DNA of 64,000 bases from Craspedostauros australis (lineage: Eukaryota), in assembly GCA_030167865.1 (NCBI GenBank), contig JALAGF010004754.1:62001-126000 (forward strand), written 5' to 3'. Positions within the stretch are counted from its first letter, which is position 1, and each line of letters starts with the position of its first letter. A model generated the notes under the pieces. That model saw nothing but the letters and a program-made list of their open reading frames with translations. It had not been told where the DNA came from and did no database searches. Both the position numbers and the translations under genes were made by a program. Shown in pieces: positions 3,593 to 44,999 of this stretch.

Positions 3593-5483
3593 TTAGAATA
3601 GAGATCGTCGTCTGTTGATGCGCCGACGGTTGATGCGGTCGTTGCCATCCTCCGTCTCCGTCAGGTCCGTTCTCGTTTGCAGCGTCTCCAGGAATTCGTG
3701 CGCCTCCTCGCCGGACATGACGATGCGGTCGACGACAGTGTTGAACGAGGAGCAGTTGCGGCACTGCACACCGAGGAAATGCCACGCACGTCCATCGTCC
3801 GACTTTGCGCAATCGATGCAGGTGATGTTCACAACGCGGGCCAGCTCGGGTGGCACGGCTTGGAACGCGACGCCGGCAGCCATGGCGTTCCAGGTTGGCA
3901 GCATGCGCTCTCTCGTCTCTGCCGTCTTCTTGCAGACCGGGCATCTCGAGTCGTGCGCGGCAAGCTGTCGGAAGCATTCCCAGTGGATGGCGTGCCCGCA
4001 TGGCATCTCGTGCGACGCGCTGCGTGAGCTGAAAAGAAACTCCTGGCAGACTGGGCAGTTGGATTTGTACTTTCCGCTTTTGCAGTTGTGGTTGGAGTAC
4101 AGGCTCTTGTCAATGCACATGCCGCAATCGTGACAGTGCTGAAATTTCTCGGCACCGCCCACGCGGCAGAAGCCGCAGTCCTTGCAATGGTATGGCTTTT
4201 CATCGTTCGACATCCAGAGGTTGCAAATGCTGCAATGGTATTCACCGAACTGGACGTTGCAATTAACGCAGTTGTTGCTGTTGAGATGTTTTAGTGTCGT
4301 GATGTGTTGTTTCAAGTGAAGCGAAATGGCGAAGCGAAATAGTGAAGAGAAGCGAATGGGAAGACAAGAACGCAATTGGAAAGGAGGAAATGTTGAGCCG
4401 ACCCACCGCGACGAGCATGATAATGAGGGGCATCAGAGGATGGTAGAGTATTCTTCATGCGGGTAAAAGTACATAGGGACACACGAGTAGAGCAGACGAA
4501 GCAAGGCAGAGCGGAGTCGCAAGCGCGGAGACAGGAAGCCAGAGCCTCGACGATCGCAAGGCGCAACACGGCATATTTTGCGTTGCCGAATCAAGCGATG
4601 CAATGGCATAGATGCAAAAGACAACGGTACGATGCATTAAGACTCACGTTTTGGAGGACTGCTTGGTGCAGCACTCGCGACAGATAACTTCCATAACGGC
4701 GAACCGGTCGATGCTGTGATGAGTTTCCTCTGCCGTTTGCATCGTGGTGAAGCTACCTGGCAGCGACGAACTTCTGGGGTACTTGCGTGAGGCTTTCATC
4801 ATGAGCAAGGGAGGAAGGACAGGGCTTTCGTCGTGACATATGCGGCAACCGAAGGCCGCGCCGCAGCATGGGGCCACCATGGTGCAATTGCGGTCGTAGT
4901 GGGCACAGCGCGGCCTTGTCTGTTCGGCGAGTTTGGTGGCTTCGTTGCAGATGGGGATGCACTGCTCGACGTATGCAGGGAAGAGGGCTGTTGTGGGACC
5001 GTAGCCGTTCTGCCCCATCGCCGAGGGATCCATCATCATGGCTCCGCTTGCATTGACAGCGTTGGCCGGCACGGGGACTCCGTTGATCATCATGACATTG
5101 GGCATGGCTTGGGTTGGGCCGCCTCCGTTGGCGTAGCCGTAGCCATACTGCGCAGCTGCGTGATCTAGGTCGAATTCTCCGCCTGTCGCGCCGTGGCTGC
5201 TGGAGCTGGACGTGACCGAATTGGTCCCCATGCTGCTGCGTCTGCCATCCATGAGGTGCTGGATGGATCGACGGCGTTCGGATGGCGTGATGCTGGTGTC
5301 TGCTAATATGGCCTTGATGCTGGCGCGCCTTTCCCTCTCCTGCTCTTCGGACATCGATCGCCGACGACTCAGCTGACCATCCGTCAATGTTCCCAAGGGC
5401 AGAGTTCCGTTGGTGCCGACTTGCTGCGGTTGCTGCGTCATCAGGTGGTCATCCTGCTGGTCCACATCCATGGAGTCTGCCAT
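3593..5483 (-). CDS. RCHY1: CHY/CTCHY/RING/zinc-ribbon E3 ubiquitin ligase (Pirh2/RCHY1-like); exons 5483-4648, 4277-3593
   Basis: CAHYDRNC...APCC...CRICHDE (CHY); YHCSICNLW...YHCKDCGFCRVG (CTCHY); CPVCQEFLF...CGHAIHWEC...CPVC (RING); CIDC...HFLG..CRNCSSFNT. The phase-2 gtgagt...cag intron joins the exons in frame. Confidence 0.92.
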
Positions 5484-8939: not shown

Positions 8940-11900
8940 TCATATGATGTCGGGTTCGTCGACGGGCATGTTTTCGTCATGCCCGTTGCCGCCAGTCTCG
9001 TCCATTCCTCTGGTGTTCATCTTCCTGGCTGCATTCTTTTCTGCAGCTTCCAGCTCGATATGGATCTGAGTTTGCGTTGGGAAGTACATGTTGGAGAAAA
9101 CCTTGCCTGCAACATCGAAAGCGATCGCTGCCACAGGAACGAAGATGATCAACATCCAGTTCACAGAGCGCATGCCCAGCACGTGTGAAGTCACACCGGC
9201 GAAGTTGAAGAAACTGCCAGGACCCTGCTGCTCGCTCACAATCTGTTGTTTGCGGAAGTTGAAGTGGTGAAAAGGTTGGTGTTCGAGTTATGAGAGGTAG
9301 AGTGGGATGAAAAGTGGGGTGAGAAAATTCGCAGATGGAACGCACAGCCAAGGAATGGCATCTTGCAGTGACAGCATGGTACGGTGGGCATCTTGACGCG
9401 AAGAAAGATGATTGCCCCTGTGTCCACGTGGTCGTTTCCCAGCACATCAGCACAACAGCACGACAACACATTATCACGCCAACGAACAACGCCTGCGTTT
9501 CCGCCAATCCGAAGTTGACGTACCTCGTAAGCCCAAATGAAGAAGAACCAAAAGAAAATGGAACCGAATGTCAGCCCATGCCAGGTGTAGGCAAGGCGGC
9601 TGAAGAAGCCCTCCTTGGCGTCCTTGCTGCAAGTGAATGCCGGCCAGTTGCCATTGATGATAGACTTTGACTCGTAGAGGACCTGTTTGGCAAGAGCGGA
9701 GAGAGAGGGAGAAAAAGAATTGAACGAAAGTGCGAACGAAAGTGAACGTGAGAAAGATGCAAGACCGCATTTTGCACTCCGGCAAATAAAAAACGGAACG
9801 ATCCACGACAGCGCCATTCTGTGGACGTACCTTGAGGGCAAGCAAAATAACGAGGCATGTGAATGTGATCGTGCCGACGCTCGTGAGATCCGCGCCTTCT
9901 GCCTCTCCAGGATGGTCGTCGTCGAGTTTGCTGGAAAGTCCGCGGAATGCAGACGATATTCCACCACCTTTTCCCAATGGCTGCACTGTGAAGTGGTACA
10001 AGGAAAAAATGTGCACGAAAGTCACGATCACCCATCGGAACATCACTCGGATGGTCATGAGCTCGTTCTTGCGGGATGGTTCGTAGACTTCGGGGTTGCG
10101 CTTCACGTAGTCCTTATCCAAGCATCTGTCGAATGCACCGAACACCATGATGGGCACCCCAGCCACGAAGTTGAGCATAGCGATGACCCAATCGTCGAAG
10201 AGGGCCGTGCCGCTGAAGACGGTCTCGCCGTTGAAAACGATAAGACATCCGGCCATGATGGCGTTCTTGTAGAAGGAGAACATGACGACATTGCTCAGGC
10301 GGAAGAAGTTCCACCGACCGTGGACCAGCACAAGGTCCTCGAGGAATCGGAACTGCGCGATAGCAAAGTCGGATGCGTTGACTGCCTGCTTTCCTTCCTT
10401 TCCAGAAATACCGATGCCGACGTGCGCTTCTTGGATCATGCCAACGTCGTTGGCACCATCGCCGATAGCCAACGTCACTGGTTCTGGGCTCACGTTGTGA
10501 CGCACCAATTTCACTAGCAGAGCCTTTTGCCGTGGGCTTACACGGCATGCGATGACGGCGTTGCACCCGCTGGCGATCGAAAACACGAGCTCCTCCAAAT
10601 CGGGATCGCCGAGCATGTGTTTCAGGGCGGCACCTTCGATGACGAGCGCCCGTGGTCCTTCACCAGACGACATGCCCTCCTCGGTGTGGGGGGCTGCCTG
10701 CTCGCTCGGCTCTTCGTCGATCGAGGCCAACACGGCCTGCCTCTTCTCCTTCTGCAGATGCCGAATCAGCTTGCCCTTTCGTCTGTCCTTGTCGACTGCG
10801 AACAGTCTCTCCATGAGCGTCCGGCGCTTCAGGTCAAAATCTGTATCGTCCGAATTGGTAGGCATGAAGCTGCTCAACGACAGCACATCTTCGTCGATCA
10901 GCGCCTCGTCCTTGTCCTCCAGCTGGTCTGCTGTGAGGTTGGCAATGGCCGCGTCGCGGTCCTGGGAGAAAGACATGCGGCCCTCCTTTCGGTTCTGCCC
11001 CAGCAGACTCCTTGCGGATTTGGCTCGCGTGAAGACTTTGGGGAGATCGTCAGATGACAGCGCCAACTCTCCGGAAGCGTCGGTGCCTTTGAACGAGGCG
11101 GGGCCTGTGGTTGCCTTGCGGCTTCGCTGGGCCTGCCCCTCGGGGGTTCCGAGGAAGTCGTCGATGATCTTCTCAGCGCGGTTGCGCACCTTCCGTCTCC
11201 TCTCAACGTCGATGAGCATGCGCTCGTCGATGGCCTCCTGGTCGTCCAACGTCATGATCTTGGTCTCCAAGGCCACGGTGCTGAACCCAAGCAGCCCGAC
11301 AATCATCTTCTCGACGGTGAGGAAGAATTTCCGGAACCCGCGGAGGACTTTTCGCAGCGCCTTTCCTACTTCATGCGAAATATGCTCCGACGTGCAGCCC
11401 CTGACATCTCTGTCCACTTCGGACCTTTGGTACACGGGAAGCTTGCCTGCCTTGACGAGCTTGATGAACTCCATGGCGCACTGCGCGCGGACGAAGTTGG
11501 CCCCCTTGTCTGCCACCTCCGTGACGCACATCTTTGGCGTCAGGACCTTTGTTGAGTATCCGATTTCGATGGCAGTCTCGCGCTTGTCGCCAGTCAGAAC
11601 CCAAAGTTTGATGCCTGCCTTCTCCAACGTCGAGATGGTCTTCGGGACTCCGACCTGCAGCTTGTCTTCAATGGCCGTTGCTCCGACGATGGTCAGGTTG
11701 CGTTCGATGGCAAATGCAGCTGCCTTCAGCTTTTCGTCGCGCTCCTTGATGGAGGTTGCCGCGGTTCTGTGCAGCTCTACCCACTCGGCGCACTCATCTT
11801 CTGTCAAGACTCTCATTGCCAGCACAAGGGTTCTGAGTCCCTCCGAGGCAAACTCTCCAAGATGGGATTGGAGACCGTAGATGTGCTCCATCTCCCACTC

Positions 11901-14900
11901 GTCGCTGGCGAACACGTCGTCATCATCCACATCATCCTCCGAAACCGTCGACAACGAGCGTTTGGGTGGCATCGGCATACGCGAAGGTTCGGTTTCTGCC
12001 GTCAGCAGCGCCTGACCTCCGGAGCACACGTCGGCATCGAGCATCGCCGAGTCGGCGCCCTTGCAGAACAGGATCGGGAGACTGCCCAACTCCGGCGGAG
12101 ATCTCAGCAAGATGGACATGCGCTTGCGTTCTGAATCGAACTTGTTAACAGCAAGGATGGACCAGGTCTCGGTTCTCTGGCTGCTTGCATCAACCATATC
12201 TGCTTGGCTGGGTTCGTAGATGGATCCGCGTCTGTCCTGGTTGATCGATTTCGCCGCAAGCAGCTTGGGAGTGAGCCTGCCAGTCTTCAGACTATCCACA
12301 AGTTGTTCGTCCTCCAGGAAGGACGGGTGCGGCGAGCGGATCTTGATGCCCGTAGAATCTCTGGCGATGACTTGGAAGCCGAAGGAGTTGCTGGCGGCGC
12401 TCACGAGCGCACCCTCATCTGGACTTTCGGCCTGGTAGGCAAACCCATGCGGGGCGCCGTCCGGCGCCTTCTCGAGCGATTGGGCCTGGTCTGACAGGTT
12501 GGATTCTGTGCTGATAACTCGATCACGTGGCAAACCGTCAGGCGCTTCGATTTCGATCGCTTGCTCTTCGTGGACTGGGCGGAGATTGCCGAAACCAGAG
12601 TTGTCGGTCATTTCGCTCATGGCACGGTCGCGGTTGCGATTGCCGAAGAGCTTCTTGACGTAACTGCGGGAGGAGGATTGCGAGGTGACAGATTTGGAAG
12701 AATCGATGTTTGTGGACAGATCCAGGTCCTTCTCCACTACGACGGTGTGGCAAAGACTCATGACGCGCAAAAACATCTCAGCATTGAACGTCAGAAGCTT
12801 GCTGGGACCAGCATCGGCCTTGTCCGGTTGACCGGACTTCGATGGGTATTTCGACTTGTCGGGATATGTCCTGTTGCTGTTGCTGTTGCCGCTGCCACCG
12901 CCACGACCGAAGGAGAACAGCCTACCAACGAGCAACTGACGAAGAGGGTGGAAGCTCGACACACGGTCATCGTCATCTTGGTCTTCAGTTTGTGCACCTG
13001 GACGTGATTTCTGCACCGGCGGCCCGAAAACGGACCCATCAACAGAGCAACGCTTGAACCGCATCACATTCTGCGTCAGAGTTCCAGTCTTGTCCGAGAA
13101 GATATACTCGATGCGTCCCAGATCTGTAACGTTGGTGCTGCGTGCGACTGCGCGCGTGTCCGTGACAGTGTCGTAAAGATCGAGGTCGACGTAGATCAAC
13201 CAAAGGAAGAAGAAGTTGATGGCTTCGACTGTGACGTACATACTCAATGGGACGAAGTTACTGAGCAACGTGACGTAGAGAAGGAACATCTGTGCCCAGT
13301 TGGGTGTCTTTTCATCCCAATCTGGTGCATCCAAGTCGGGGAGGTAGGGCCATTTCTCAGATGTGTCCTCGTTCAAACCGACGTACCTGACAGCAGAAGC
13401 GATCGAAGGATGGAGGCAAACAGTTCATCAGAAGGCGACAGATGTAATGCAAGTGGAAGAGAATGAGAAAGAGCGAGAAGCATGCACATGAAAGATGGAG
13501 GAGCATGGGGGGAAGGATGAGTGGACCTGTTCTTGTGATGAAAAGGGTGCGCATTGCATGCACATTGCATGAAACATTGTATCACTGCGCAGGAAACAAG
13601 GAAAGCGGACGACTCACCACAAGAACTCGAATTTCTCATCGTTCGCGATCACCGACTGGGTTGCCAGGTAGCTGATGCAAAGGATCATGATAATGATGAT
13701 GGCAAGTACGGTGTAGTTCATCAAGATGTCGAGTTGACTGAACTTCGATGGTGTTTCGAACGAGTTCTGGACGAGCTTCGTGTCGGTTCCTGTGAAGCAT
13801 GCCAAACCGATGGCCCACTCGGTGTTCCGCAGGACGGCGCCACGGAGCAGGATGTTGTCTGCGCCGAGCGGGATGTCGAAGGACGGGCCGTCACTCTCGA
13901 CTGGGGGCAGAGTGAGCTTTCCGGTGAATGTGTTGACGTGAGGGTTGGGTGGTTCGGTGGTGAGGGTCGCAACGAAGCGCACATCGTCCGTCTCGAATGC
14001 CTTGGAATTGTTGGGCAATTTCATGGATTCTGAGACGAATCCCTTGACAGAGTCCAAGCCCGCGGAGAAGAAGTTGCGCTTGGAGCTGGTACCGAGCGAT
14101 GAGGCGTCTCCGGCGTAGTTTGGATTTTCCAGCGCAGAGATCCCGTGCGGGTGAGCCAAGGTGGAGAACCTCGTCACTCGCTTGGTGGCCTGCTCCAAGG
14201 TTTCGATCTTCTCGGTGTCATCTTCTTCGTCCTCCTCTTCGTAAGTCTCGAGCATGGGCGTCGAACTTCTCAGAAAACGTTGCACTCGTTTCGGCAGCTG
14301 CGGGCTGGTTCTCAGCTTGAGGTTGGTCTCTCCGTCGATGGAGCTGGTTTCGATGTAGGAGCTGCCGTTGTCTCCGCTGCTCGCCAGCAGAATCATGTCG
14401 GCTGGAACCATGTTGCGGTTCTTAACGAGGACAAGATGTCCCTGCCGAATATTCATCCTGCTGATTTTTTGGAACGCCACCTTGACGTTGGAGGAATCGG
14501 ATGTCGGCGCGGGCGTCTCCGGCGTTTGATTGTTGGAGGTTTGATGGTATGCCTTATCCAGCCTGACCACGACATCCTTGCCATCCAGGATTGATTCCTC
14601 GCGTTCGGCCTCCGGATCTTCCTTCAACTCGTCGGCGCGCCTCAGGATGACGCATGGCGCATTGTTGGTGAGCCTGTCGCTGATGTGACGTCTCCGATCC
14701 GCGGAACCTTCAATCAGTAAACTGAACGAAATGACCGCCGCCAGCGGCCCAAGCGTTGTCCATGGTGAAATCGCGGATTCGTACAGATCGGTGTACGTTC
14801 CAATCGCCATGACGCCTCCCACGCACAGAAAGTACAGGTTGGCAAACCGGCGGAATTGCTCCAAAACAGCCTGAAGGATTGCAGGTCATTATGGTATCGG

Positions 14901-15733
14901 AGTGCATGTCGTAGTATGGTATGTCGTAGTATGGTATAGTTTGGCGTAGGATGGTATGATACGGCATGCAGGTGTATTGATAGAGTCGTGTTCGTCGCAA
15001 CATGACAAGAAAGCGCCGGTAACGAGGTGTTGGATGTGAAGGCATTACGAGATGTTGTTGAACACAACATAGTGGTCGTGCGGTTGCGATGGCCGTCGGA
15101 GCAGGTCACATGAGAGGTTCCACGTTGGTGCGTTGGTCCATCGACGCATGGGTTGGTGGGGTTCACGGATCCGCCAAGTTCGGGGCATCACCATTGCGAA
15201 CGACCAACCAAACAAAATTCGTTTCGCCGTTTCGGGATGGCCATGAAGGAACAACCACGAAACAGTCGTGTGAAGGAGACAAGAGATCACGCAAGACCAT
15301 GAAAGATCGGCGCGCAAATGTTGCACGATCAAGAATGCCTGTGAGAACATTGCCATGTGCAAGTCACTGCTGCTGTATCTGTTGCTATTGCTTTCGTATC
15401 AGGGATCAGCATCATCTGGTTGAGACATGATTTCCTGCCTGTGCAAGGGCACATGGCGCAGAGTGCAATAGAGCAGTCTTGTCCGGAACAACGTTCGGCG
15501 CATTCAACAATTTCCAACGCGCTGCTCTTGCTGAGACCGTATCCGAGAGCGGCGGAAGTACCACAGGCGAGCAGGACAATTGAGCCAGGGTGTGCACTTA
15601 CGACTGGGACGAACGTCAGGATGGTGTACCGCGACGTGGTGATGCGGTTGTTGCATCGCTCCAGATCTGGTCGACCGGCCAGCAGGACGCGATCCCGCTG
15701 ATCGTCGATCTCCTTGCTTCCTCCCAACCCCAT
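8940..15733 (-). CDS. P4-type ATPase (phospholipid flippase); exons 15733-15602, 14870-13618, 13386-9831, 9682-9524, 9242-8940
   Basis: EQFRRFANLYF, ETSSIDGETNLK, DKTGTLT (phosphorylation site), YQAESPDE, KGADS, IEDKLQ, LTGDK, CRVSPRQK, AIGDGANDV, FYKN. All four GT-AG introns join in frame. Confidence 0.96.
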
Positions 15734-15941
15734 GGTGTGACGTGATGTGCTTAACGGAATGTGGTGATACAGATGATGATGTTGATGGTGTAACCTAATT
15801 GGGATTATGAGCTTTTCTGCTGTTGCTCTTGTCTTTGTTGATGTTCTTGTTGATGACAGCGGCTGACCCGTTCTCATCGGTCATCCTCTGTGTTGCTTGT
15901 GCTCTCGCGCTTTCTGCGCTCAGTGTGACATCTTCGACCTG

Positions 15942-16379
15942 CAAGACACGGGAAAACCGACGAAACACGATCAGGCTGAGTCGTGAGTCGGTACGACTTC
16001 TCTGCCAATTGTCCTGTTCGGATTGCCTGTTTGACTAAACCGAATACTTGCATGCAGTAGATAACGTTAATTCACGTCTGTAAATTCAAATCAAGACAAA
16101 TCCTGGTTCAAAAACAAAATAGGTGAAAGTACTCCAGACTCGACGAAAGTAATTAGGAATAGGTGAAAGTACTCCAGACTCGACGAAAGTACTCAGGATT
16201 AGGTGAAAGTACTGTTTCGATGAATAACCNAAATNACGGTTATTACCTANTATTTAACGTCCTCAATGGTGTCAACGGAGTTTGACTAATCAGAATAATA
16301 CATTGGTGCACAAATGCCACGTCAGCATTGACATTCTTGGGCGTTTCTTCGATCGTTTCGTCGAAATTCCCGTGTCTTG
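15942..16379. mobile_element. 438-bp MITE-like TIR element inserted in the 3' LTR
   Basis: Perfect 13-bp TIR CAAGACACGGGAA, extending imperfectly to about 30 bp. TSD CTG at 15939-15941 and 16380-16382. The sister LTR shows the empty site (tcgacCTGtttg, about 18651-18662). Confidence 0.88.
16119..16213. repeat. 40-bp tandem repeat, about 2.4 copies, inside the MITE
   Basis: aggtgaaagtact at 16121, 16161 and 16201; ccagactcgacgaaagta occurs in the first two units. Confidence 0.9.
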
Positions 16380-18323
16380 CTGTTTGATTCGATGTCCATT
16401 TTCGCTCACGCTCCAATACGCCCCTTCGAGGCATGTTTGGTGGGAACCTTCCATACATGGCTTGATCCTGGCAAGGTTGCAATGGAGCATGCTTGTCATG
16501 GTTTGCGTAGGGCTCTCAGCGGCACCTGGACTCGTTGTGCCATCTTCATCGTCATCTTCATCATGTGTATATGTATCCGGGGAAATGTGAGGGGGTCTTC
16601 TGAATAGGGACATGCAACACAGCTTTTTTTCAAACACTCGTTCGGTGCGCGTGCAGTCTCGCTTGGTGTGCGTCTGGGCTGAGAGGGCGGTCTTGATTCT
16701 GGTGCCCCTCTTGCTTGTCTTCTTCGTTGCTTTTGCAGTAAGGGCATGATGATGTTCCTTGTTTTTCGTCATCAGTGGTTTGGTCCACCTGAAGAATAGG
16801 TGATGTTGCAACTGCCTGGTCCTCGCATACTTTGCGATGATGAACGGATCGTCGAGTTGTACATCGTCAAGTCGGTACCATGACTTGTCACTGTTTCCCC
16901 ACAACACTTTCAGCTTCATGTGTTCCTGGTCGATGCCACGGAATAGGACCTTGTGCAGGGTTTCGTGGAGCATCCGTAGTCCAAATGTTTGTTGTTTTGG
17001 TTTCCTTGGTCTGGCAGATCGCCTTGGCAGTGTATCTTGTTGGACTCCTATCCATTTCTTCTTCTTTGCTGTATCCGGTGGCTTTGGGATGTGGTTGACA
17101 CTTGGCGTCGCCACAATCATGGCAGCCAGCGGGTCCCCCCCTGAATCCTTGGAGCGTGGCAATGCCCGATCTGGAGGATTTGCGCTTGAGTCACTGGCAG
17201 TTCTGCCAGGGCTTTTGGTAATTGGTTGTCCGGCCCTGTTGCGCACACTGCTCTGCTTGAAGGGTGCAGTAGTGACAGCAGTCGCCCCTTTCTTCCAGAC
17301 CACCCATGTAAGCTTTTCAGCTGTTCGTTGGGATTGACCGGAAGTAGACTTGGTGCCACTGACGGACCTGTCTGCGGAGTCGTATGCCAGTGAACGTGGT
17401 CGAATGGGCGGCGAAGGCGTGTCCCGGTCCTTCTTGCGTTGCTTGTTCTTGATGCGTCGTGTGACTTTCGCGTGCTCGGATGGTTGTGACGTGCTGAATG
17501 CGTCAGCTGGTGCATGCATATCGGGGATGGATGCGCTCGTGCGATGCATGGCCTCTGCCACATCATCAAACCCTGGAGAACTGTGCAGTTCTGGCACCTC
17601 TACTGTCGCAGGCATTGTTGGGGCCATGCGCTCCGGCGGCTTGGCTATTCCCGCTCGTCGGCTGATGGATCGTGCGATGCGTTCTGCCATCATTTCTTCG
17701 TTTACAGTGGTCTTGAGGTCGTCGAACGTCTCGATGGTTCCTTGGACGAACTTGGAGTAGATGGCTGGTTGGATGGCATCCATGCCATACCAATCCATAC
17801 AGTTCTCAGCGTGCCTTGGCTGCTGTTTTGTTACAGCATGGTGAAGTGCTGCTATCTTCTGGTGTGGGTGTTCTGACACGTAGTTGTTGAAGTCTTCAAC
17901 ATCAAGGATGTCTGCCTTGACGCAAAGGATGGATGCTCTGTCTGGAACCTCGGACAGGTTTTTGTGCATCTCAATGTATTCTGCAAATGACATGAGCAGT
18001 TCGAAGTCCGGTAACAGTGGAACGAGCATGACTGGTACTCTGGTCGTCATCACCATGATGGAAGGGTCACGTCCACCAATGTGGCACATGTTCTCGAGGA
18101 CCCTGCTGAGCTCCAAGCCTTTGTCAGCCTGCCTCTTGGTGTAGAATGTCATGCAATCGATGAACACTCTGCTAAAACCCATGCTCTCAGTCAGGAAGGT
18201 AATTGTCGTTGTTGTTTTATCTGGCGGTTCTTTGGGCATCTGGAACCCAGACGCGGTGTTCACCCCAGTGGATCGCGACATCTTTCTCTCTCTCTCTTCT
18301 GTCCGCACTTCTGTTCTCTGCAT
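16290..18323 (-). CDS. 677-codon ORF of the LTR element: gag-like N-terminus plus chromo-like pol remnant; no RT, integrase or protease
   Basis: The ORF lies between the LTRs and runs on into the 3' LTR and MITE. KLKVLWGNSDKSWYRLDDVQLDDPFIIAKYA...FFRW resembles the 'VxWxxGxxSWxPL...P..VAEYA...F.W' segment of diatom copia polyproteins (recalled pattern). Confidence 0.6.
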   Translation of the reverse strand: MQRTEVRTEERERKMSRSTGVNTASGFQMPKEPPDKTTTTITFLTESMGFSRVFIDCMTFYTKRQADKGLELSRVLENMCHIGGRDPSIMVMTTRVPVMLVPLLPDFELLMSFAEYIEMHKNLSEVPDRASILCVKADILDVEDFNNYVSEHPHQKIAALHHAVTKQQPRHAENCMDWYGMDAIQPAIYSKFVQGTIETFDDLKTTVNEEMMAERIARSISRRAGIAKPPERMAPTMPATVEVPELHSSPGFDDVAEAMHRTSASIPDMHAPADAFSTSQPSEHAKVTRRIKNKQRKKDRDTPSPPIRPRSLAYDSADRSVSGTKSTSGQSQRTAEKLTWVVWKKGATAVTTAPFKQSSVRNRAGQPITKSPGRTASDSSANPPDRALPRSKDSGGDPLAAMIVATPSVNHIPKPPDTAKKKKWIGVQQDTLPRRSARPRKPKQQTFGLRMLHETLHKVLFRGIDQEHMKLKVLWGNSDKSWYRLDDVQLDDPFIIAKYARTRQLQHHLFFRWTKPLMTKNKEHHHALTAKATKKTSKRGTRIKTALSAQTHTKRDCTRTERVFEKKLCCMSLFRRPPHISPDTYTHDEDDDEDGTTSPGAAESPTQTMTSMLHCNLARIKPCMEGSHQTCLEGAYWSVSENGHRIKQQDTGISTKRSKKRPRMSMLTWHLCTNVLF

Positions 18324-20260
18324 ACGTGAAATCCCCCCTCAACTCGTGGTTGCCTTCCGGATTAGAATGCGCCCGTGCCTGTGCCTTCTCTCTCAAATCT
18401 CTGCGGCGGCGGCGTCGGCGGTCTCGTCAGTGTGGCACAACGAAGTGAGCTCTCAAGGTCGTATAAACTAACGGAATGTGGTGATACAGATGATGATGTT
18501 GATGGTGTAACCTAATTGGGATTATGAGCTTTTCTGCTGTTGCTCTTGTCTTTGTTGATGTTCTTGTTGATGACAGCGGCTGACCCGTTCTCATCAGTCA
18601 TCCTCTGTGTTGCTTGTGCTCTCACACTTTCTGTGCTCAGCGTGACATCTTCGACCTGTTTGATTCGATGTCCATTTTCGCTCACGCTCCAATAGTGCTG
18701 ATGCGATCGTGCACTGCTCAAGAGCGTTCCTCTATTGAACGGAATGGATACAAATGGACGAAGGAGACTCCTTTGATCTTTGCACTTTGGCAGTAGCCAC
18801 TCTCACAGTCCTCTCGTTGTTTGTAATTTCGTTGTCAGCATTATCAACAAAGCCGTCGTCGTCGCCGCTGCGCTTCTTTGTGTGTTTCTTGTTGTTGTGC
18901 TTTGTTTTGCTTTGCTTTGCTTTCTTGCTGTGGCCTCTCTTGCTCCTCACAGCGTCGTCGGCTCCAGTACTCTCTGGAGGATGGTCAAGCGGAAGCGCTC
19001 CGACACCACCGAAAGTGAAGACGGCCTCTTGCGGGGGAGCACCCTTCGACGAAACCAGCGTGAGAACTCGATAAGTCAACAGGAACCGCGATCGTTTCGC
19101 TTCCAAGAACAGGATCGTAAACTTTTGTTCCAAATCGCAGTTTTGTGTCAGCGACCAGAGTCTATGCGGTTCTTCTGGAGCGTCCCCTGAGAGCACACAG
19201 ACACGCAGCGTATTACCATGCACTTCCGGATGACCTCTGTGCGTGATTGTGGAGTGGTGGATCGTCGTTTTGCTATGCTATTGTTACCTCTCCGTGCTCT
19301 GTGTTGTGTTTTGTGTTGTTTTCGCATCAACCAAGATGTCACGATTCAATCTCTCTCTCTGATCTCTTGTGTTCCCCTCCACTCACAAAACCGTGTTGTT
19401 CAGTTTGGGTTCGTGCAGTTTTTGATTGAAACCGGTCGAACAGTGAACTTCGTCCACTCAGCTGCTCGCGCGGAGATGGTGGACATGCAGGATGTCTGCG
19501 CAGCAACACACGTGTTCGGAAAGTGACCCTCTCTCGTGCCACCAACTCGCACACATCAACGGCAACAACGCCTCCTCCTCCCACACAACGCTCGTACAAA
19601 ACAGCAAACGACGAGGGCAACGACAAAGAGAAGGTCACAGCAGGCGCGCACAATCACACCATGGCGCAGCTCTCCCACCAAAAACGAAATCACGATACAG
19701 AGTCACCGCCTGGCAGGCTCGTACTGGTACTCGCAACCAGTCACAGCAAAGATCTTTCGGAACGTGCAATTGTACAAGGAAATGTGGTACAACTCATGAA
19801 TGACTCTTGTTCCATCAAGTCGTTGGGTTGCAGCACACTCGACAATTTGTGAAAGAACTGGAGCGACGAACATCGAAGAACCTCGCATCAAACCATGCGA
19901 ATCGCCATCCTGTCCGTCTGTGCGCCAACTTTCGACTTCTCTGCAGTTCCTCTCTCTTGCACAAGTCCCAATCCACGACAAACCTGTCTCCGAAGTGCCC
20001 AAACGAGTGTGAAAGTGGCACGAACTCACAATCAGAGACAAGCTGCTCGTCGCTGCTGCAACTTCATCGCACAGATTGGTATTAGCATAGTACATGTCCT
20101 CGTACATTGTGAGTGTATGGCATGCAGGTAGTTCACACAGCAGACCAGTAGCCATCCACTCCTCCCTTCACATTTGATGGCAACTGTTCGTTCATCTGCT
20201 GGCTCCGACGATCGGCAAGTATCACAACAATAAGGTGGATCTGGTGTGGCACATTTCTCT

Positions 20261-20360
20261 CATGCCACTTGCACAAGCCGCTTGTACATGCCGCTTGTAC
20301 ATGCTGCTCGCACATACCGCTTGCACATACCGCTCGCACAAGCCACTCGTACATACCACT
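20261..20360. repeat. 13-bp minisatellite, about 7-8 degenerate copies
   Basis: Units such as ccgcttgtacatg, ccgcttgcacata and ccactcgtacata. Confidence 0.8.
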
Positions 20361-21625
20361 GCCATTGCCATCGCAACCTGTGCCGTTGCTCCATTTCACT
20401 GGCAACACTTGGATCAGCAGGATGCGGAGATTGTGAGCATGGTGTCGCCATTCCTACAGTTTTGACCAAGGTTGTTGCCACTCTTTGGATCGACGTGGTG
20501 GTGAATGGAAGGTGAATGGAAGCGTCAAATGCATACCCTATCGAGTTGTGGGCCTCGTGTGATGATTGGGCTTGAATGGATTGGAGTTTGATGGAATCAT
20601 TGACTGGTCGATGGATCAACGGATGGATGTGTTGAAGTGAGGTGAAAAGAATTGCATTGTACTATTTAGATTTCTTTCTTGCTTTTGCTTCGAGTGGGGA
20701 GGTTGGTGTGCCTGAGTGATTTGAGCTGAGATGGATTATGTTGGGTTGAATTGAATTGCATTGCATTGCATTGCATTGCATCTTGCTGCGTGGCTTGTAC
20801 GTTGGACGAGAACGTTGGTTCGATTCCGCTGCCGATGTTGATGATATGTTTTGGATTTGCAGTAGTAGATGTGGTAGTAGATATTGCTGCGCTGCTGCTG
20901 TGTGGTTGTCGTTGTAGAATTGATGTGATCTGGGTGGAAATTGGTCACATCTGCTTGTGCTGTGTGTATGGTATGACATGGTACGTGTGTTGGAGTCATT
21001 GCTCCCTGTTGATGGTGCACAAAATGGGTGTGCTTGTGTGTTCCTGTTGATTGTAGGCGTCTTGAACTGACCATGGTATAATATGTGCTCGTCGTTTGTG
21101 ATGTTGTTCTGCACTGAGAGCATTGTTTGTGGTGGGGTTTTGGATACAGTTGTGAACGCCATTTGGTTGAATGCGCCCTCCTCCCAATCCAACCTGCTGC
21201 GACCATCGGCGTTGAGACGTGTATGATACTCTGCGAGTGCTTCTGCCCGAGTTCATTGTGAAAGTTGAGTGTGATTGTTGGTGGTGCTGCAAGGGACGGT
21301 CGGAGACAGTGACGGATGCGCACGGAATATGACTGTGCCAATCTGAAAGCATGGCTGAATTTTCACTTTGCCTCACTCAAGTTTACTCGGACGAGCAAGG
21401 GATGAGCGTGTGGGTATCAGTTGAGGATGTGATTGTTCAATGTGCTTGTATGCACTCGGACCATCCAGTACTTGGATTAGTCATGGATAAAAGCAACAGA
21501 CAGACTGCCAATAGAACTTTATGATGTTTCAAATTGAGTCCCATGTGTCCCTGTTCTCTCTCCAAGCAATATTTTGAATAATATTGGACATTATATTCAC
21601 GTTGCGCATGTCGGTCTGATTCCAT

Positions 21626-22101
21626 GTTAGAAAGCACGGCTGGCATGTTTCAGACTGATTCAGAATGGATTCAGACTTTCAGAACCAATTCAGAACTTCA
21701 GAACTTCTGACTTTTTCCGTTCTGATTCTGAATTGAGAGTGGTTCTTCCAGTGGTTGTCATGGGGGCTTTGCTGCAGACATGCAATAGTTACCTTCTGTG
21801 TCGTGGCTTCTCCATGTGTATCATTTCCAATCATGTTGTTTGCCCATGCAGAAACATAAATGCTCTTCTGTGCACCAACACAGACACAAAGAGAGGAGCA
21901 GCCAAACACCAGCTGCGACATCAACAACATGAAGAACTTGACTTGCATCAGCAAGAGCATTCAAACTTTCAGAATGGATTCAGAACGGATTCAGAACTTC
22001 AGAAGTTCTGATTCTGAATTCAGAATGAGTTGTCTGATCCAGAACAGTGACAGGAAGGCACTGAAGTGTTCCATGTTGAGTGGCCTGCCCTGCTCTCTAA
22101 C
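21626..22101. mobile_element. Degenerate MITE-like element with subterminal TTCAGAA arrays
   Basis: gttagaaagcacggctggc (21626-21644) matches the reverse complement of 22083-22101 at 16/19 positions. TTCAGAA/TTCTGA clusters at about 21648-21735 and 21960-22028. No TSD seen. Confidence 0.45.
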
Positions 22102-22264
22102 TGTTATATTCAATATCCAAATGTGTCTTCACAATTGAAACGTGAACCCACAAAACTGATGGTGAATTAGTCGAATTAGTCGAATACAAACCGTCTTGTT
22201 TATCCACGATTAATCCAAGTACCGGACGGTCCCGGCATCTGACCCCCAGCAACGAGCGCAACAC

Positions 22265-22837
22265 TTAAGCAGTTCCCTCCTCCTTGCTGGTGCCGGCGTC
22301 CTCTTCCCCATCAGCCTTGGCGGCATCCGCGTCACCGGCAGATCCGTCCTTCTTTTCGTCGTCAGCGTTGGCCTTCGCCTCGGCTTCGATCTCCTCGGCC
22401 GACTTCTTCTTGGACCAGTAGGTGTCCATGTCCTCGTCCAGCTTCTTGGATGCGACAGTCTTGTCCTTGCTCTTCATCCAGTAGTCATCCATGCCGGCAT
22501 CCAGATCTTCCGCAGTCACGGGCTTCTTTGGCTGTTGTGGCTGCGACGATTTCTGGGCTTTCTTATTCTTGGCGGCCTCGGCATTGCGGTCCTTGTTCTT
22601 GTTGTACTTCTCCTTGTTCTTCTGCGAGTTGGGACCGACGCCGTACTTGGAGACCTGCTTTCTGCGCGGATTCTCACCTCGTTCGATGGCCTCCTTGCTG
22701 AGACGCACGCGGAGCTTCTCGCGCTTCTTCTTGCCGACCACGGCCTTGCCGGATGCCTTCTCCTTTCTGCCTCCCGTGGAGTTGTTGCTGTTCCTCTTTC
22801 CGCCTGGAGACTTTCTTGGTGATGATGTTTTCGCCAT
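22265..22837 (-). CDS. CHTOP/Friend-of-PRMT1 C-terminal domain protein (basic, nuclear, mRNA-export related)
   Basis: Lys-rich N-terminus from MAKTSSPRK; duplicated motif TAEDLDAGMDDYW...LDEDMDTYW (FoP_duplication/UAP56-binding type). Confidence 0.75.
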   Translation of the reverse strand: MAKTSSPRKSPGGKRNSNNSTGGRKEKASGKAVVGKKKREKLRVRLSKEAIERGENPRRKQVSKYGVGPNSQKNKEKYNKNKDRNAEAAKNKKAQKSSQPQQPKKPVTAEDLDAGMDDYWMKSKDKTVASKKLDEDMDTYWSKKKSAEEIEAEAKANADDEKKDGSAGDADAAKADGEEDAGTSKEEGTA

Positions 22838-30231: not shown

Positions 30232-32788
30232 ATGCCACCGTCAGACGCATCGCACTGGAAGAGCGCCGTCGATCCCAGATCGGGACGCACGTACTACTAC
30301 CATGAAGTGACTCGGGAGACCCAGTGGAGGAAGCCCCTCGAGCTGGCCTCGAAGGAGGAGCGCCGCGCCATGGAGGAGAAGGAACGCAGGCAGAAGGAGT
30401 TCTTCGCCGCCATGGAGTCCAACATCATGACCAGTCTGTCGCAGGGCATCGTGCCAGGGACGCCCAACCCCAGCACGCAGCCGCTTCTGCGCAAGAAGAG
30501 CAGCGTCAGGTCGAAGAAGAAGAAGAAGGGTGGTTCGGCGACGCCGGCACCGTACAGACCCATGGAGCTGGGCTCCGTCGGGGGCTCAAGGAAGCCAGGT
30601 CACGATGCAGGCGCTGCCGATGACGACGACGATGATGACGACGACGAAGGTGACGAACGCCCAGGGTTGATCCGGACGATCAGTGCCATGGACGAGACCG
30701 TCCTCAGCGATTTGATCCGACGGCAGCCGTCCTTCCGGGCGATCAAGAAGGAGTCCCTGAACCCTGGATCGTTGGGACGCACGCTGTCCACCCCGCTCAA
30801 CCCGCTCACCGAATCGGCGAGCGAGTTTGCCGCTGACGACGGAGATATCTTGTTTGATCCATTCCAGGGACTTCCGGATGAGGACCCCGGTGCCGATCTG
30901 GACGTCAGCGAGAGCAGTGAGGACAGCCTGGGGAATCTTCCGATCGGCTCCGCAAGGTCCAGCCGCTCTGCAAAGTCGCACGGCAGCGCTCTCAGCGGCA
31001 TGAGCGGGAGGATGAACGAGTCCAGCATATCCGGCTTCGGCTTGACGTGGGAGGAAACCCAGGCGCTCAAGCAACTGGCCAAAATCACGAAGGAGATGGT
31101 GGACGTCGAGAATGATGACATCCAGGCCGTGGAGCGCAAGCTGTCCAGAACCACCCTGTCGAGCTCCGTCGCTCCTGGGAGTTCGAGCGCTCCCGCCACT
31201 CCGAGCCTCGTCGCCAAGTCGAAGGATCTCGGGTCGAAGGGCAAGCGAGACCTGCCAATCGAGCTGGAGCTGGACGATGACAACAGCGAATCGAGCATCG
31301 GGGATGCCGAAGCGGCCCTGCCAGCCACAGACAAACCGACGCCGGCCAACTTCGGAAAGGAGAAGGCGAGGCCGCTGCCCCGCGAGCTGGAGTTCGATGA
31401 CTCCGATTCGGATCCAGAGTCGGACATTGAGGCTTCGCCTTTCCCCAAAGCCGAAAAGCGCAAGTCCGTGCGAATCAAGGAAGACAACGCGCCAGGCAAA
31501 GGAGGCAAGGGTGGCAAGTCGGAGCGCCCCAACATCACTCGGCGAAACACCTGCAGCACGCTGTACGTCGGAACAACCATGTCCGCGCCCGACAAGGACG
31601 CCACCATCAAGGTAAGTTTGCCTTTCGTACCGCACGCACTTGCGTCTGGTCGTGTGTGCGCGCCTGCCAATGTGTTTGGAAGTGTGAAAGGTGTCGAGGT
31701 GTAGTCCAATGCACATATGTATGCGAAGGTGTTGAGATGCGGCGTTTGCATGGCGTCGGATGATCGCAATATCATGTCACGACATGCATTGACGCCACGC
31801 TCGAACAGTGTTGGTGAAATGGAACCATTGGCGATTTGCATGAACCAGGCATGGATGCATGGATCCATGCACATGAGTGTTACACCAACACGAGCTTTGC
31901 ACATCGTTGGTCCCCTTGACCTATTCAAGTCTAACCCCAACCATTGCCAATTCGTCTGTATCTTGAAATTCATGTATTTCATGTACTCACATGCACAAAT
32001 ACGCACACGCACGTAAACATGATACGTTATAGTGCGTCTGCGGAGTGTACCGCGCTCACATCCTGTCGTCCGAACAAGACTTTGTCGGAAAGCAACAGCT
32101 CAAGGAAAAGCACACTATCTTCAACGATCTGGAATCCCAGCAGCAGCAGATCGATGACGACGGCTCGATGCCGCAATACTCCATCCCATCTCTGGAGGAG
32201 GTTGGCAAGTTCTACCGCGATATCTTCGTCAAGGCGCAGATGGAGTCCGATTGCATCATCATGTCGCTGATCTACGTCGAGCGCCTCATCAAGACGACGC
32301 GCGGCACACTGCGACCAAGGGCGAGCAACTGGCGCTCGATGCTATTCAGCTGCATGGTGCTCTCCAGCAAGGTCTGGGACGACCTGAGCATGTGGAATGC
32401 CGACTTCAGCCAATCCTGCCCACCAGGCGTCAGCTTCCCGCTGCAGCGCATCAACGAGCTGGAGCTGGCGATCCTGAATGTGCTCGAGTTCCAGGTGAAG
32501 GTCCCGGCCAGCGAGTACGCAAAGTACTACTTCCTCCTGCGCTCCATGCTCATTAAGAGCGGTCTTGGTGGAGACCAGATCACCACCCTCAACCCACTGG
32601 ACGTCGTCGGAGCCCTCCGCCTGCAGCAGGTGTCGTCGCAGTATGAAGCGGACTCGCTGGCCAAGGTCAGGGTGACGAGATCATTGAACAACCGCAGCAA
32701 AAGCCTCGGGGTTGCTGACAGACAGCGCGTTGCCAATATGCAAAACACGCCCACCAAGATCAGCCTGGAACAGGTCGTTAAGATGTAA
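30232..32788 (+). CDS. WW-domain plus cyclin Y-like protein; exons 30232-31611, 32033-32788
   Basis: WW: WKSAVDPRSGRTYYYHEVTRETQWRKP. Cyclin-Y-like: RRNTCSTLYV...TIK|CVCGVYRAHI, LIYVERL, NWR, SKVWDD, NELE, VPASEYAKYYF. Phase-0 gtaag...tag intron. Confidence 0.88.
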
Positions 32789-35542: not shown

Positions 35543-36172
35543 TCACATTCCTCCTCCCCGAAGCTGCAACACCATGTGGATGGTGGCACCAGCGGCAATG
35601 TTGTACGATTCGAGAGTCTTGTCGTCTGCCAGCTGCTTTCCGGAGTGGATTAATCGGATCTGGTCCACCTGGATACCCTCCTTCTCCTGCAGAGCCTGCT
35701 TGACGGAGAGAACCTGGTTCTCTGGCTCAAAGTTGAATGCCTGTTTGCGGCCTGTCAGCGTCTTGATGAAAATCTGCGGGCAGTCGCAGGCATCGTTGTG
35801 GTCGTTATCGTCGTTGTCATCGTCATCGCAATCGTCATTGTCATCGTGGATTTTTATTTGGTTCAGAGAAGAAACATCAAGAAATGGAGAACATTGCAAC
35901 AAGCGCCAAGTAACAGGCAAAGGAGAGGAAATCATGAGTTGAGGTTGGGGGGGAATCGCATGCACAACACTCGATTCAAGGGTGAATGGAGACTTCTCGC
36001 TCCGGTCTGCTCTGTTCCATTTCGACGGCCAATGCGCACCCGATGCTTATGTGGCCAGTCCGTGTTGAAGAGGGAGAATGCCTTCGTGCACCGGGAACAG
36101 GAACCTCCCGTCAAATCCAAATGGCTGCGACCAAGATACCATCTCGGAGCAAGTTCACATGCTCACCTGCAT
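35543..36172 (-). CDS. NEDD8: NEDD8/RUB1 ubiquitin-like protein; exons 36172-36167, 35773-35543
   Basis: ATGCAG|gtgagc first coding exon and ccgcag acceptor give [10 protein letters not shown]...[20 protein letters not shown]...[11 protein letters not shown]. Position 72 is not Arg, so this is not ubiquitin. Confidence 0.88.
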
Positions 36173-38439: not shown

Positions 38440-40896
38440 ATGGGCAAGCAGCAGCAGAAGAAACGCAAGGAAGAGGAGGCCGACGAGCAAGGCAAGGCCG
38501 CCAAGCGCCCGCGCAATGTGAACGTCGTGCTGGAGGAAATGCCAAAGTCCTCCCACTACCAGATCTCCTTCATGCACAAGGGCATCGTCACGCACGTTGC
38601 GTCATCGGCGAAGCACGGGTACGTTATCACCGCGTGCACGGAGGGCGTGATCAAGTTCTGGAAGCGCAGCTCGGCGGTCCTCGAAAAGAAGCCGGATGGG
38701 GCTCCACCCAAGAAGGAGGACGAATCCACAACGGCGTGCCTAGAATTCGTCAAGTCCTTCACGGCGCATATCGGGCCGATCATTTCCCTGCTGGTGGATC
38801 CCTCGCAGGACACCGTGGCCTCCGTGGGCAAGGACGGGACCATCAAGCTCTACGACGTCTCCACCTTCGATGCGACCTCCATGCTGCGAACGCAGAACTC
38901 TTTCGCTCCGGCGGCCACATTCCTGCTCGACGAATCCCAAGATCTGCTGCTGGCCATCGCCGATAAGAATTCGGGCAAAATCTTCGTGTACTCCGTCGGG
39001 ACCCTGGAACTTGTGCAGGAGCTGTCGTTGCATTCGAAGCCGGTCACCGCCTTGGCCTACAACAGCGAACGCAAATGCTGCGTGAGCACGGACGAGAAGG
39101 GCACCATCGAAATCTGGGACTGCACGTCGGGCACCAAGCCTGGCGAAGTGGTCGGCGCGGCATGCTCCCCAAAGAACAACAACGTCACCTTCACCTCCAA
39201 GATGGACACTGATCTGTACGGACTTGCCAAGAAGGGAACCTCCATCCTGTCGCTTTCCATGTCCAAGAATTACTTTTGCGTCTTCGGGTCGGACTTCAAG
39301 GTGCGCCTGTACGAGGTTGCCACGGGCAAGATGGCCGTGCGATACGATGAGCGGATAAGCGTCTACACCTCCAAGTTCGCTTCGTACGACATGGACTCCA
39401 TCGAATACGGCAAGCGAGCTGCCACCGAACGCGAGATGATGGACCAGTCCGACCTTCCCACATCCAACCTCGTCCAACTCGATCCGACGGAACGGTACAT
39501 GATCATTTCGACCATCGTGGGGATGAAGCTCATCGACTGGCGAAAGAACAAGGTCGTCAAGGTCATTGGCAAGGCAGATGCCAGCCAGCTGCGGTTGCTC
39601 TCCTTCTGTCTCTGCCTCGGGGACCCGAAGGTCAATCAACAGATGAAGCTGGCGCTCAGTTCTGGAAGCTCCAGCGCCGTCGGGGAGAAGAAGGAGAAGG
39701 TCCAGCAATCCATCCTCATCGCGCTCGCGTACCAGCAACGTCGATTCTACGTCTTCTCGCACCACGACCCGCTGGAGGCCGACGACGCAGACGGAGCCGC
39801 CAGCCGCGATGTGTGGAACGAGGCCCCATCCTCGCAGGACAAGATCCTGGGCATGAGCGGAGGCCGGGCGGCTGGCGGGGCGCAGAAGGCTGGATTTTCC
39901 TCCGCAATCCTGCGCACCAGCGTGGGCGATGTGCATATCAAGCTGTTCCAGGAGGTGCCGAAGACGTTGGAGAATTTCTGCGGCCACGCACAGGCGGGAT
40001 ACTACGACAACGTCATCTTCCATCGCATCATCAAGGGATTCATGCTGCAGACGGGCGACCCGCTTGGTGACGGAACTGGCGGAGAGTCCATTTGGGGAGG
40101 AGAGTTTGAAGATGAATTCGTGCGAGAGTGAGTCTTGTCCTGTGGATGCATGGGTGGGGAGAGAGGGGCCTGGCGTTGGATGTTGCAAAACTATGATCGA
40201 ACGTTTGCCCTGACGATGCTCTGAATGATTCGTACAACGTACAACGCATTCCATGTGCCTTGTGTATGCTCGCGTCTCTGGTTTGTCCTGTGTCACTCTG
40301 TGTTCTTCGCTTGTTACTCACACCGACAACAACTCTGCCTTCATTTTTTCCATTTGATTTCTTCCAATTCCATTCTATCTGCAGCCTTCGCCACGATCGA
40401 CCATACACCGTATCCATGGCCAACGCTGGTCCAAACACCAACGGATCCCAATGTAAGTTCACACAATTGGCAAAGACTGAATATGAGTATATTCGTTCCT
40501 GGTTGGTTGGTCTGTGAAGCGTGCTGAAAAGATACGAGGAGTTCACACGAGTACCAACATGCATGCATCCCGTCCATCTGACACACTGCACTTGCACCAC
40601 CTGTGCTCTTTCCTTCTCTTTCTTGTTGCGCAATTTGCTCTATTCTGCCTGTGCCAAACATGGCCAATACCTGCTTGTATTGTATCATGCACAACATGCA
40701 CTTCCTCCGTCAACACATATTCACAAATACAGTCTTCATCACGACTGTTCCAACGCCATGGCTTGACAACAAGCACTCCGTCTTTGGCCGAGTCACGAAG
40801 GGTATGGACATTTGCAACATGATCGAGAATGTGAAGACCGACACGAACGACAAGCCGCTGGATGAGATCCGTATCTTGAGCATCGACGTGGAGTAG
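38440..40896 (+). CDS. PPWD1: WD40-repeat cyclophilin (PPWD1/CYP71); exons 38440-40127, 40385-40452, 40733-40896
   Basis: [31 protein letters not shown]. Cyclophilin domain PKTLENF...[33 protein letters not shown]...[18 protein letters not shown]...[12 protein letters not shown]. Both introns join in frame. Confidence 0.96.
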
Positions 40897-44379: not shown

Positions 44380-44999
44380 TCGTGGGCGGTGGCTGTAGAT
44401 TATTAGACGTCGGAGTAAACGTACATACAAAGCCCAACTTGAAGAGATCTTCCGTAATCATACTTAGACACATTATACTATTCTATCATAGGGGACGCGC
44501 ACTTTCCCTTCTCTCTCAAACGAACAAACCAAGCCTGCCATTATGTCATGGCTTGGGGGGAGGCCAATTTTTTGGTAACTGCTGGTAACACTACTATTTG
44601 GTCGTACGCGTCATTTTGGCTGCAAACGCTGGCACCTTGTGCGCACCAGTCCCACGCAAAGCGGCCCAAAACCACCTTTTCTTTCACAAACCTCCTTGGC
44701 AAGTCTATGCCCCTCTGTTCATTTGAGCTCTCCTTTCGTGACCACTCTGGTGTGCAGCTTTTCATCGTCCTCTCCAACTTTGGTGGTGATTGGTTGGATA
44801 GTTGTCGAGATCTGCTCGCTTCTCTGGACCCGCCACTCGTTTTTCATTCACGAATGCCCATCACCACAATGTACCTATCGTGGAAGATTTCGGTACAACC
44901 CTGTGGTGATCATCTTGTTTCATCCTGGAACTATCACGAATGCTCAACATTACAATGTATCATACATTCCGTTCATAGTATGTTAATGTAGTTAAGTTC

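Follow-up and report, generated by a model that had tools for sequence, protein, structure and literature searches.

INTRODUCTION

In introners with terminal inverted repeats (TIRs) and target site duplications (TSDs), either one splice site is carried and the other co-opted, or both are drawn from the target, and the length of the mRNA mostly stays the same or shifts by whole codons (bioRxiv 2022.06.06.494994). An introner family is defined by at least four similar introns in a genome. As for diatoms, the supplements of PMC12130899 list introners that carry the 5' site and co-opt the 3' site in Thalassiosira oceanica, and the supplement rows for four pennate genomes give 0 introner families. 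Here we analyze a stretch of 64,000 nucleotides from Craspedostauros australis (contig JALAGF010004754.1, positions 62,001 to 126,000, assembly GCA_030167865.1), referred to below as the window, in which a 438-bp TIR element interrupts a long terminal repeat (LTR) of a retroelement located upstream of a gene for a P4-type ATPase (phospholipid flippase). According to the original prediction, made from the sequence of the window, this TIR element creates a strong 3' splice site from its own TSD in an introner-like geometry and may splice itself out, or may let upstream transcripts skip most of the retroelement and so rescue flippase expression. We consider it likely, with a probability of about 0.78, that the element is an ordinary young miniature inverted-repeat transposable element (MITE) nested in a non-autonomous Copia-derived element and that the splice acceptor is incidental.

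RESULTS

A MITE-like element nested in the gene-proximal LTR

The TIR element (15942-16379) is non-coding, without a notable open reading frame, and non-autonomous, and has a GC content of 41%, which makes it richer in AT than its surroundings. Comparison of its ends gave perfect TIRs of exactly 13 bp, beyond which, after three mismatches, a 9-bp block also matches, and CTG is present at both flanks. Excision of the element together with one CTG restores an LTR of 226 nt that is identical, without gaps, to the sister LTR (18469-18694) at 221 of the 226 positions. Given this empty sister LTR, the insertion is beyond chance, and the predicted length, TIRs, and TSD are thereby borne out. TIRs, a TSD, short length, absence of coding sequence, and an empty site are all features of MITEs and of non-autonomous TIR elements in general. 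An alternative boundary, with a 14-bp TIR and a 1-bp duplication, fits the same letters; the empty site and the splice arithmetic given below are the same for both.

All three N bases of the window (16230, 16235, and 16250, spread within 21 nt) are located inside the MITE. They may derive from reads of other copies or from heterozygosity, and cross-mapping among copies would fit. In the window, the TIR pattern matches without mismatch only at these two ends, and a blastn search with the MITE returned only the MITE itself. TIR-based patterns gave no matches in metagenome contigs (22 fixed bases) or viral contigs (17 fixed bases), and the first 10 letters of the TIR were absent from 12 of the 14 supplement files of PMC12130899. 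An 8-nt motif that follows both TIRs has nine matches in the window, four of which are inside the MITE. Folding of the N-free stretch 15900-16225 was no better than that of shuffled sequences (z 0.28). Pfam scans of 86 long frames revealed no autonomous partner in the window; their sole transposase-like match, a weak one to DDE_Tnp_1_7 at 46136-46615, belongs to a sequence with termini unrelated to those of the MITE. A single copy without a transposase would not fix the superfamily. We found no paper on this MITE in a literature search that reached neither Repbase nor most of the subscription papers, so that a prior description is possible.

The surrounding retroelement and its age

The retroelement (15752-18694) is flanked by paired 226-nt LTRs, lies on the minus strand in sense to the flippase gene, and ends 18 nt before the flippase ATG; the MITE is inserted after the 39th base of the gene-proximal LTR. 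A perfect 5-bp target duplication, GTGCT, is found at 15747-15751 and 18695-18699, and a purine tract adjoins the 3' LTR on the minus strand. Canonical LTRs end in TG...CA; those found here read TA...TA. No primer-binding site was recognized in the element. The internal region contains an open frame of 682 codons (16290-18338, minus strand) that runs through the start of the LTR and has its stop within the MITE. Residues ~430-520 of this frame (about 16700-16960) gave 15 weak, partial protein matches, of which four contain a Copia reverse transcriptase (RVT_2) and one a chromodomain; the matched part is a chromodomain-like stretch that in other proteins is located just upstream of the Copia reverse transcriptase. 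The N-terminal 200 amino acids have no recognized relatives, and a comparison with 6286 candidates of similar length gave no full-length relative. Since the element encodes neither reverse transcriptase nor integrase, we classify it as non-autonomous, and its paired LTRs, 5-bp TSD, purine tract, and Copia-related coding remnant argue for a Copia derivation.

The five differences between the LTRs are all CpG transitions, and CpG covers just 24 of the 226 positions. The observed/expected ratio of CpG is 0.71 to 0.78 in the retroelement, compared to 1.07 to 1.14 in the flippase exons and 1.38 in the MITE, which is not depleted. Judging from these base changes, restricted to CpG in the LTRs, and from the depletion of CpG in the retroelement but not in the MITE, the retroelement is therefore young and methylated, like a silenced transposable element, and the MITE is the younger of the two. 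We rejected a candidate older LTR upstream of 18695, as its score of 39 was reached by 8 of 200 null sequences. In an Rfam scan of 14800-22400, the single match had an E value of 0.39 and was far under its threshold.

The flippase gene is intact

The flippase contains PhoLip_ATPase_N/C domains in Pfam, and the ATG at 15733 is its true start, as shown by tblastn, in which residue 1 of three homologues is aligned to this position. Compared to the best homologue, 1361 of 1794 aligned residues are identical, and all six motifs checked are present. Its closest relative, with the taxon identifier of Stauroneis constricta, shares 79% identity over the 418 amino acids searched, and proteins of Nitzschia, Seminavis, Amphora, Fistulifera, and Epithemia follow; this pattern identifies the window as diatom DNA. 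The LTR contains an ATG, at 15877, that shares the reading frame of the flippase, with the frame open through 15734, and adds 48 amino acids that include a His-rich run, so that LTR-initiated transcripts could encode an extended flippase. Intron 1 of this gene (14871-15601), with 731 nt the longest of the ten introns described below, is rich in TpG/CpA (1.45) and has no repeat match in the window. At 80 flippase-related metagenome loci, blastn detected no match to the MITE, the LTR, a second TIR element of the window, or intron 1; these loci are mostly distant P4-ATPases or intronless contigs and were kept out of the splice model. The features of the locus are compiled in Table 1.

Table 1. 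Features of the MITE, the retroelement, and the flippase gene, in window positions
Feature	Position	Strand	Description
P4-type ATPase (phospholipid flippase)	8940..15733	-	five exons, 1800 amino acids, intact; introns 15601-14871, 13617-13387, 9830-9683, 9523-9243
3' (gene-proximal) LTR	15752..16418	-	226 nt split by the MITE; GTGAGC donor 16409; upstream ATGs 15931, 15884, 15877
CTG TSD, left copy	15939..15941	.	CAG on the minus strand; source of the AG of the candidate acceptor, with 15939 as the predicted last base of the intron
Left TIR	15942..15954	+	13 bp, perfect; a 9-bp block further in, 15958-15966, also matches the other end
GTGAGT consensus donor, MITE position 42	15983..15988	+	strand opposite to the flippase; unusable at this locus
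Tandem repeat inside the MITE	16118..16217	+	40-nt unit, ~2.5 copies; carries the 8-nt motif seen behind both TIRs
Right TIR	16367..16379	-	13 bp, perfect
CTG TSD, right copy	16380..16382	.	on the minus strand, its G (16380) opens the weak GC donor
Internal region of the LTR element	16419..18468	-	purine tract, long open frame
5' LTR, empty site	18469..18694	-	also has the GTGAGC donor, at 18685 (9 nt into the element)

The acceptor conforms to generic rules and departs from host introns

The acceptor was compared to ten introns that were inferred, without RNA support, in genes of the window (4278-4647, 9243-9523, 9683-9830, 13387-13617, 14871-15601, 31612-32032, 35774-36166, 40128-40384, 40453-40732, and 60068-60420). 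Four were taken from the alignment with flippase homologues and six were assigned by eye with frame continuity, among them that of a ubiquitin-like gene with a two-codon first exon, which allows no frame test; the acceptor of flippase intron 3, outside the scored range of the alignment, was read by eye and then checked. A de novo intron finder was discarded because its seven candidates mostly had incorrect acceptors. The ten introns are fairly long, at 148 to 731 nt; every donor is GT and has G at +5, and every acceptor is YAG, preceded by an AG-free zone of 94 to 468 nt. Within the last 100 nt, AG is absent from nine of the introns and occurs once in the tenth. Their 3' zones are long, AG-free, and G-poor, a pattern that suggests that branch points in this diatom are distant and that scanning takes place; generic acceptor rules therefore overcall here.

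On the minus strand, the candidate AG ends at 15939, 205 nt from the ATG (15938-15734), and is preceded by a tract with 20 pyrimidines in 27 positions and by the branch-like pentamers CTGAT and CTCAC, 35 and 48 nt upstream, respectively. The branch-like motif, the tract, the CAG supplied by the TSD, and the distance to the start codon are thus as originally described. The comparison with the host set reads differently. (i) The nearest upstream AG is 37 nt away, compared to 94 to 468 nt in all ten host introns. (ii) The last 100 nt contain seven AGs, compared to none or one in the host; of the 3114 YAG sites in the window, 132 have at most one AG in this segment and 1229 have at least seven. 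(iii) G occupies 7 of the 27 positions from -30 to -4, compared to 1 to 6 at the ten host sites. (iv) The composition score of -1.35 is below nine of the ten leave-one-out host scores and is reached by 1459 of 7427 other AGs. Overall, the acceptor is fair by generic rules and poor as a native site, so that its description as strong applies to the former only.

The look of an acceptor can be traced to the MITE and its target. The TIRs are purine-rich inward, so that either end reads pyrimidine-rich outward, and any CTG/CAG target adds CAG on one strand; the acceptor-like appearance is accordingly a by-product of the TIR and the target together.

The terminal donor and the splice arithmetic

As the 5' end of the MITE reads CAAG, a GC donor must borrow the G of the TSD, and this GC at 16380, also noted in the original prediction as weak, is the sole terminal donor. 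Its score is -0.82, compared to 4.34 to 9.21 for the ten host donors, whose scores were obtained by resubstitution and are hence flattered. GC donors are usually offset by a stronger match elsewhere, according to PMC3167603. The candidate intron of 442 nt falls within the range of host intron lengths and contains 22 internal AGs. Splicing from this GC to the AG of the TSD removes 442 nt, compared to an insertion of 441 nt, and leaves a net loss of one base. This loss is harmless in an untranslated region (UTR), and it rules out clean removal from coding exons, the property that lets introners spread. Unlike the unchanged or codon-wise mRNA length reported for introners, the MITE would shorten the mRNA by a single base, and its splice sites, judged against the ten inferred introns as usable introner sites, consist of an AG co-opted from the TSD behind an AG-free zone of only 37 nt and the donor scoring -0.82.

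Proposed course of events

The locus first received a 2.5-kb non-autonomous Copia-derived LTR element, placed in sense 18 nt upstream of the flippase ATG, an event recorded by its 5-bp duplication. The 438-bp MITE came later and entered the 5' part of the gene-proximal LTR with duplication of CTG, an order and a duplication that are visible in the two LTRs, presumably cut and pasted by a DDE transposase acting in trans. Use of the acceptor at a level that matters is probably not to be expected, because it lacks a host-like AG-free zone, because the terminal donor is poor, and because its transcription together with the gene is not required. By analogy with Phaeodactylum, flippase would most likely be supplied by an uninterrupted homologous allele or be transcribed from a start in the 3' LTR downstream of the acceptor. 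The first 39 nt of an LTR are usually promoter sequence; if this applies here, transcription from within the 3' LTR would begin downstream of the acceptor. In Phaeodactylum, LTR insertions usually stay heterozygous, and under nitrate starvation an LTR of 163 bp is by itself sufficient for expression of a reporter (PMC2806351). A heterozygous insertion or an LTR promoter would therefore be a simpler route to flippase expression that needs no splicing.

Several observations weigh against dismissing the acceptor. (i) The generic rules (YAG, at least 20 of 27 pyrimidines, 30 AG-free nt, and a branch-like pentamer), with thresholds set at the values of the candidate itself, are satisfied by just 28 of the 3114 YAG sites. 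(ii) On the minus strand, it is the only site of this type between 15734 and 19400. (iii) The rules are passed by four of the ten host acceptors, and one host acceptor has a lower composition score than that of the MITE. (iv) Compared to the empty LTR, the insertion improves the site from -3.82 to -1.35 in score and from 9 to 20 pyrimidines in 27. (v) The host set consists of ten introns only, inferred without RNA. (vi) GC donors make up 0 to 50% of sites in some introner families, so that a weak GC alone is not fatal.

Alternative explanations

The MITE could instead matter as a promoter lesion that interrupts the 5' part of an LTR now at the flippase promoter site and thereby alters LTR-driven expression or cripples the progeny of the retroelement. 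The insertion point, 39 nt into the gene-proximal LTR, and the stress-responsive promoters that diatom LTRs can carry (PMC2806351) agree with such a role, as does the distribution of CpG losses, with four of the five in the distal LTR and one in the gene-proximal LTR, numbers too few for significance. As an explanation of the locus we consider it unlikely; the effect is a predicted one, and it could coexist with a nested MITE whose acceptor is incidental.

We judge it improbable that the cryptic acceptor is joined to a donor of the LTR and that the MITE thereby suppresses the effect of the LTR insertion. A transcript started at the native promoter would enter the 5' LTR, be spliced from 18685 to 15939, lose 2747 nt, and reach the ATG via 187 nt of the 3' LTR; alternatively, a retroelement transcript would be spliced from 16409, with an intron of 471 nt that is within the host range. 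Should the acceptor be used, these GT donors would be likelier partners than the GC. They are GTGAGC sites, 9 nt inside each LTR, that share their hexamer with one host donor (36166) and belong, with a score of 2.61, to the four highest-scoring GT donors from 19700 to 15990; moreover, the flippase frame is intact and, as stated, no other site of the generic type is available in this region. However, every one of the ten host donors scores above 2.61, an intron of 2747 nt would have almost four times the length of the longest host intron, and the seven AGs in the last 100 nt weigh here as well. The product of the 2747-nt splice would keep three upstream ATGs, which open frames of 3 and 29 codons and the in-frame extension of 48 amino acids, and the pyrimidine tract of one TIR could, judging from complementarity, pair with the other TIR in the same transcript. 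LTRs carry their own 3'-end signal, which this product would also keep.

A broader proposal, which we regard as very unlikely, is that the MITE belongs to a diatom family with CAAG termini and a preference for CWG that would make a 3' splice site with each insertion. Here it would have entered an LTR that had separated the flippase from its promoter and would, with the donor at 18685, turn nearly the whole retroelement into a 5'-UTR intron of 2747 nt, so that the mutation caused by one transposon would be suppressed by another, and the GT donor on the opposite strand (MITE position 42) would make it an imperfect proto-introner that is not yet frame-neutral. Least probable of all is that the MITE is an introner spliced out as a GC-AG intron with the TSD at both ends and with other copies forming introns genome-wide. 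It has TIRs, a short TSD, a co-opted AG, and a length in the host range; some families draw both sites from the insertion site (bioRxiv 2022.06.06.494994), and the diatom T. oceanica has introners with a co-opted 3' site (PMC12130899). Against this, the loss of one base would shift the frame of any coding insertion, unlike in reported introners, and the donor score and the 22 internal AGs are unfavorable. Moreover, the sole known copy is in another transposable element rather than in coding or other exon sequence, blastn of the MITE against the window found no resemblance to any of the ten host introns, and two T. oceanica families in PMC12130899 are GT-AG. Of the introner-like geometry claimed for the element, the TIR element in the LTR and a CAG from the TSD behind a pyrimidine-rich TIR hold, and self-splicing is not supported, given the net loss of a base, a donor below all ten host donors, and no long AG-free zone.

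Transcript reads from empty LTR copies would mimic a skip of 441 nt and are a trap in any RNA analysis. Five single nucleotide polymorphisms, at 15879, 15907, 15909, 15917, and 15924, separate the LTRs, and junctions of 441, 442, 471, and 2747 nt split this artifact from the splicing models; the locus is therefore a clean test case.

Other repeats in the window

The second TIR element (21458-22232, 775 bp) has 34-nt arms that are 88% complementary, internal inverted and direct repeats, and an observed/expected CpG ratio of 0.44; it shows no clear target duplication and borders on a gene whose 3' end is at 22265. The segment 44500-58900 is a CpG-depleted, repeat-rich block with direct repeats that are 98 to 99% identical (47671-48422 and 54484-55512, the second with an extra piece of 277 nt) and an older repeat of 78% identity (44546-44873 and 53399-53731); the weak DDE_Tnp_1_7 match, of the piggyBac type, is located in this block. 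Two direct repeats of 160 nt (61960-62118 and 62501-62660), 91% identical and 541 nt apart, possibly form a very small LTR-type element.

DISCUSSION

Read as an ordinary nested MITE, the insertion is of little significance. If the suppressor explanation were true, the locus would offer a natural case in which a nested transposon restores a gene through splicing, and it would mark, in a pennate diatom, a move toward becoming an introner; the four pennate genomes in the supplement rows of PMC12130899 have no introner family.

The retroelement resembles the Copia elements of diatoms (PMC2806351) in its short LTRs, its CpG methylation signature, and its insertion near a gene; unlike these, it is non-autonomous, without reverse transcriptase or integrase, and has LTR ends that read TA...TA.

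The assignment of the MITE to PIF/Harbinger or CACTA, in which 3-bp TSDs occur, fails on the terminal letters. NuwaI (PHIS, PIF/Harbinger superfamily; PMC4482050) has been reported in animals only and has CWG target duplications and TIRs of 12 to 61 bp that usually start with GGG, and A or G is the usual first letter of PIF/Harbinger TIRs. The MITE is similar to NuwaI in TIR length and in its target duplication, CTG, from which, as a single insertion, no preference can be read; unlike NuwaI and PIF/Harbinger, it begins with CAAG, a difference from a start-letter rule that is usual and not absolute. With CACTA/EnSpm elements (CMC; PMC2613891) it shares a 13-bp TIR, a 3-bp TSD, a repeated subterminal motif, and the first letters CA, whereas its terminal pentamer is CAAGA and not CACTA.

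Compared to IE1 of Micromonas pusilla and other TSD/TIR introners, as described in PMC11282704, PMC11470543, and bioRxiv 2022.06.06.494994, the MITE has in common a 3-nt TSD, TIRs, and a 3' AG co-opted from the duplication. Introners of this kind carry their own GT or GC donor and mostly keep the length of the mRNA, whereas the MITE lacks a terminal donor that belongs to it, would cost the mRNA one base, is known from a single copy, and is outside exons. The introner families of T. oceanica (PMC12130899) are alike in their diatom host and in their class, in which the 5' site is carried and the 3' site co-opted; two of these families differ from the MITE and its GC donor in being GT-AG.

The best match is found with MITEs nested in LTR retrotransposons, with which the element shares its short, non-coding sequence, AT richer than the surroundings, its TIRs and short TSD, and its position in another transposable element; its CAAG termini occur in none of the groups with 3-bp TSDs that were checked. 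Nesting of transposable elements is routine.

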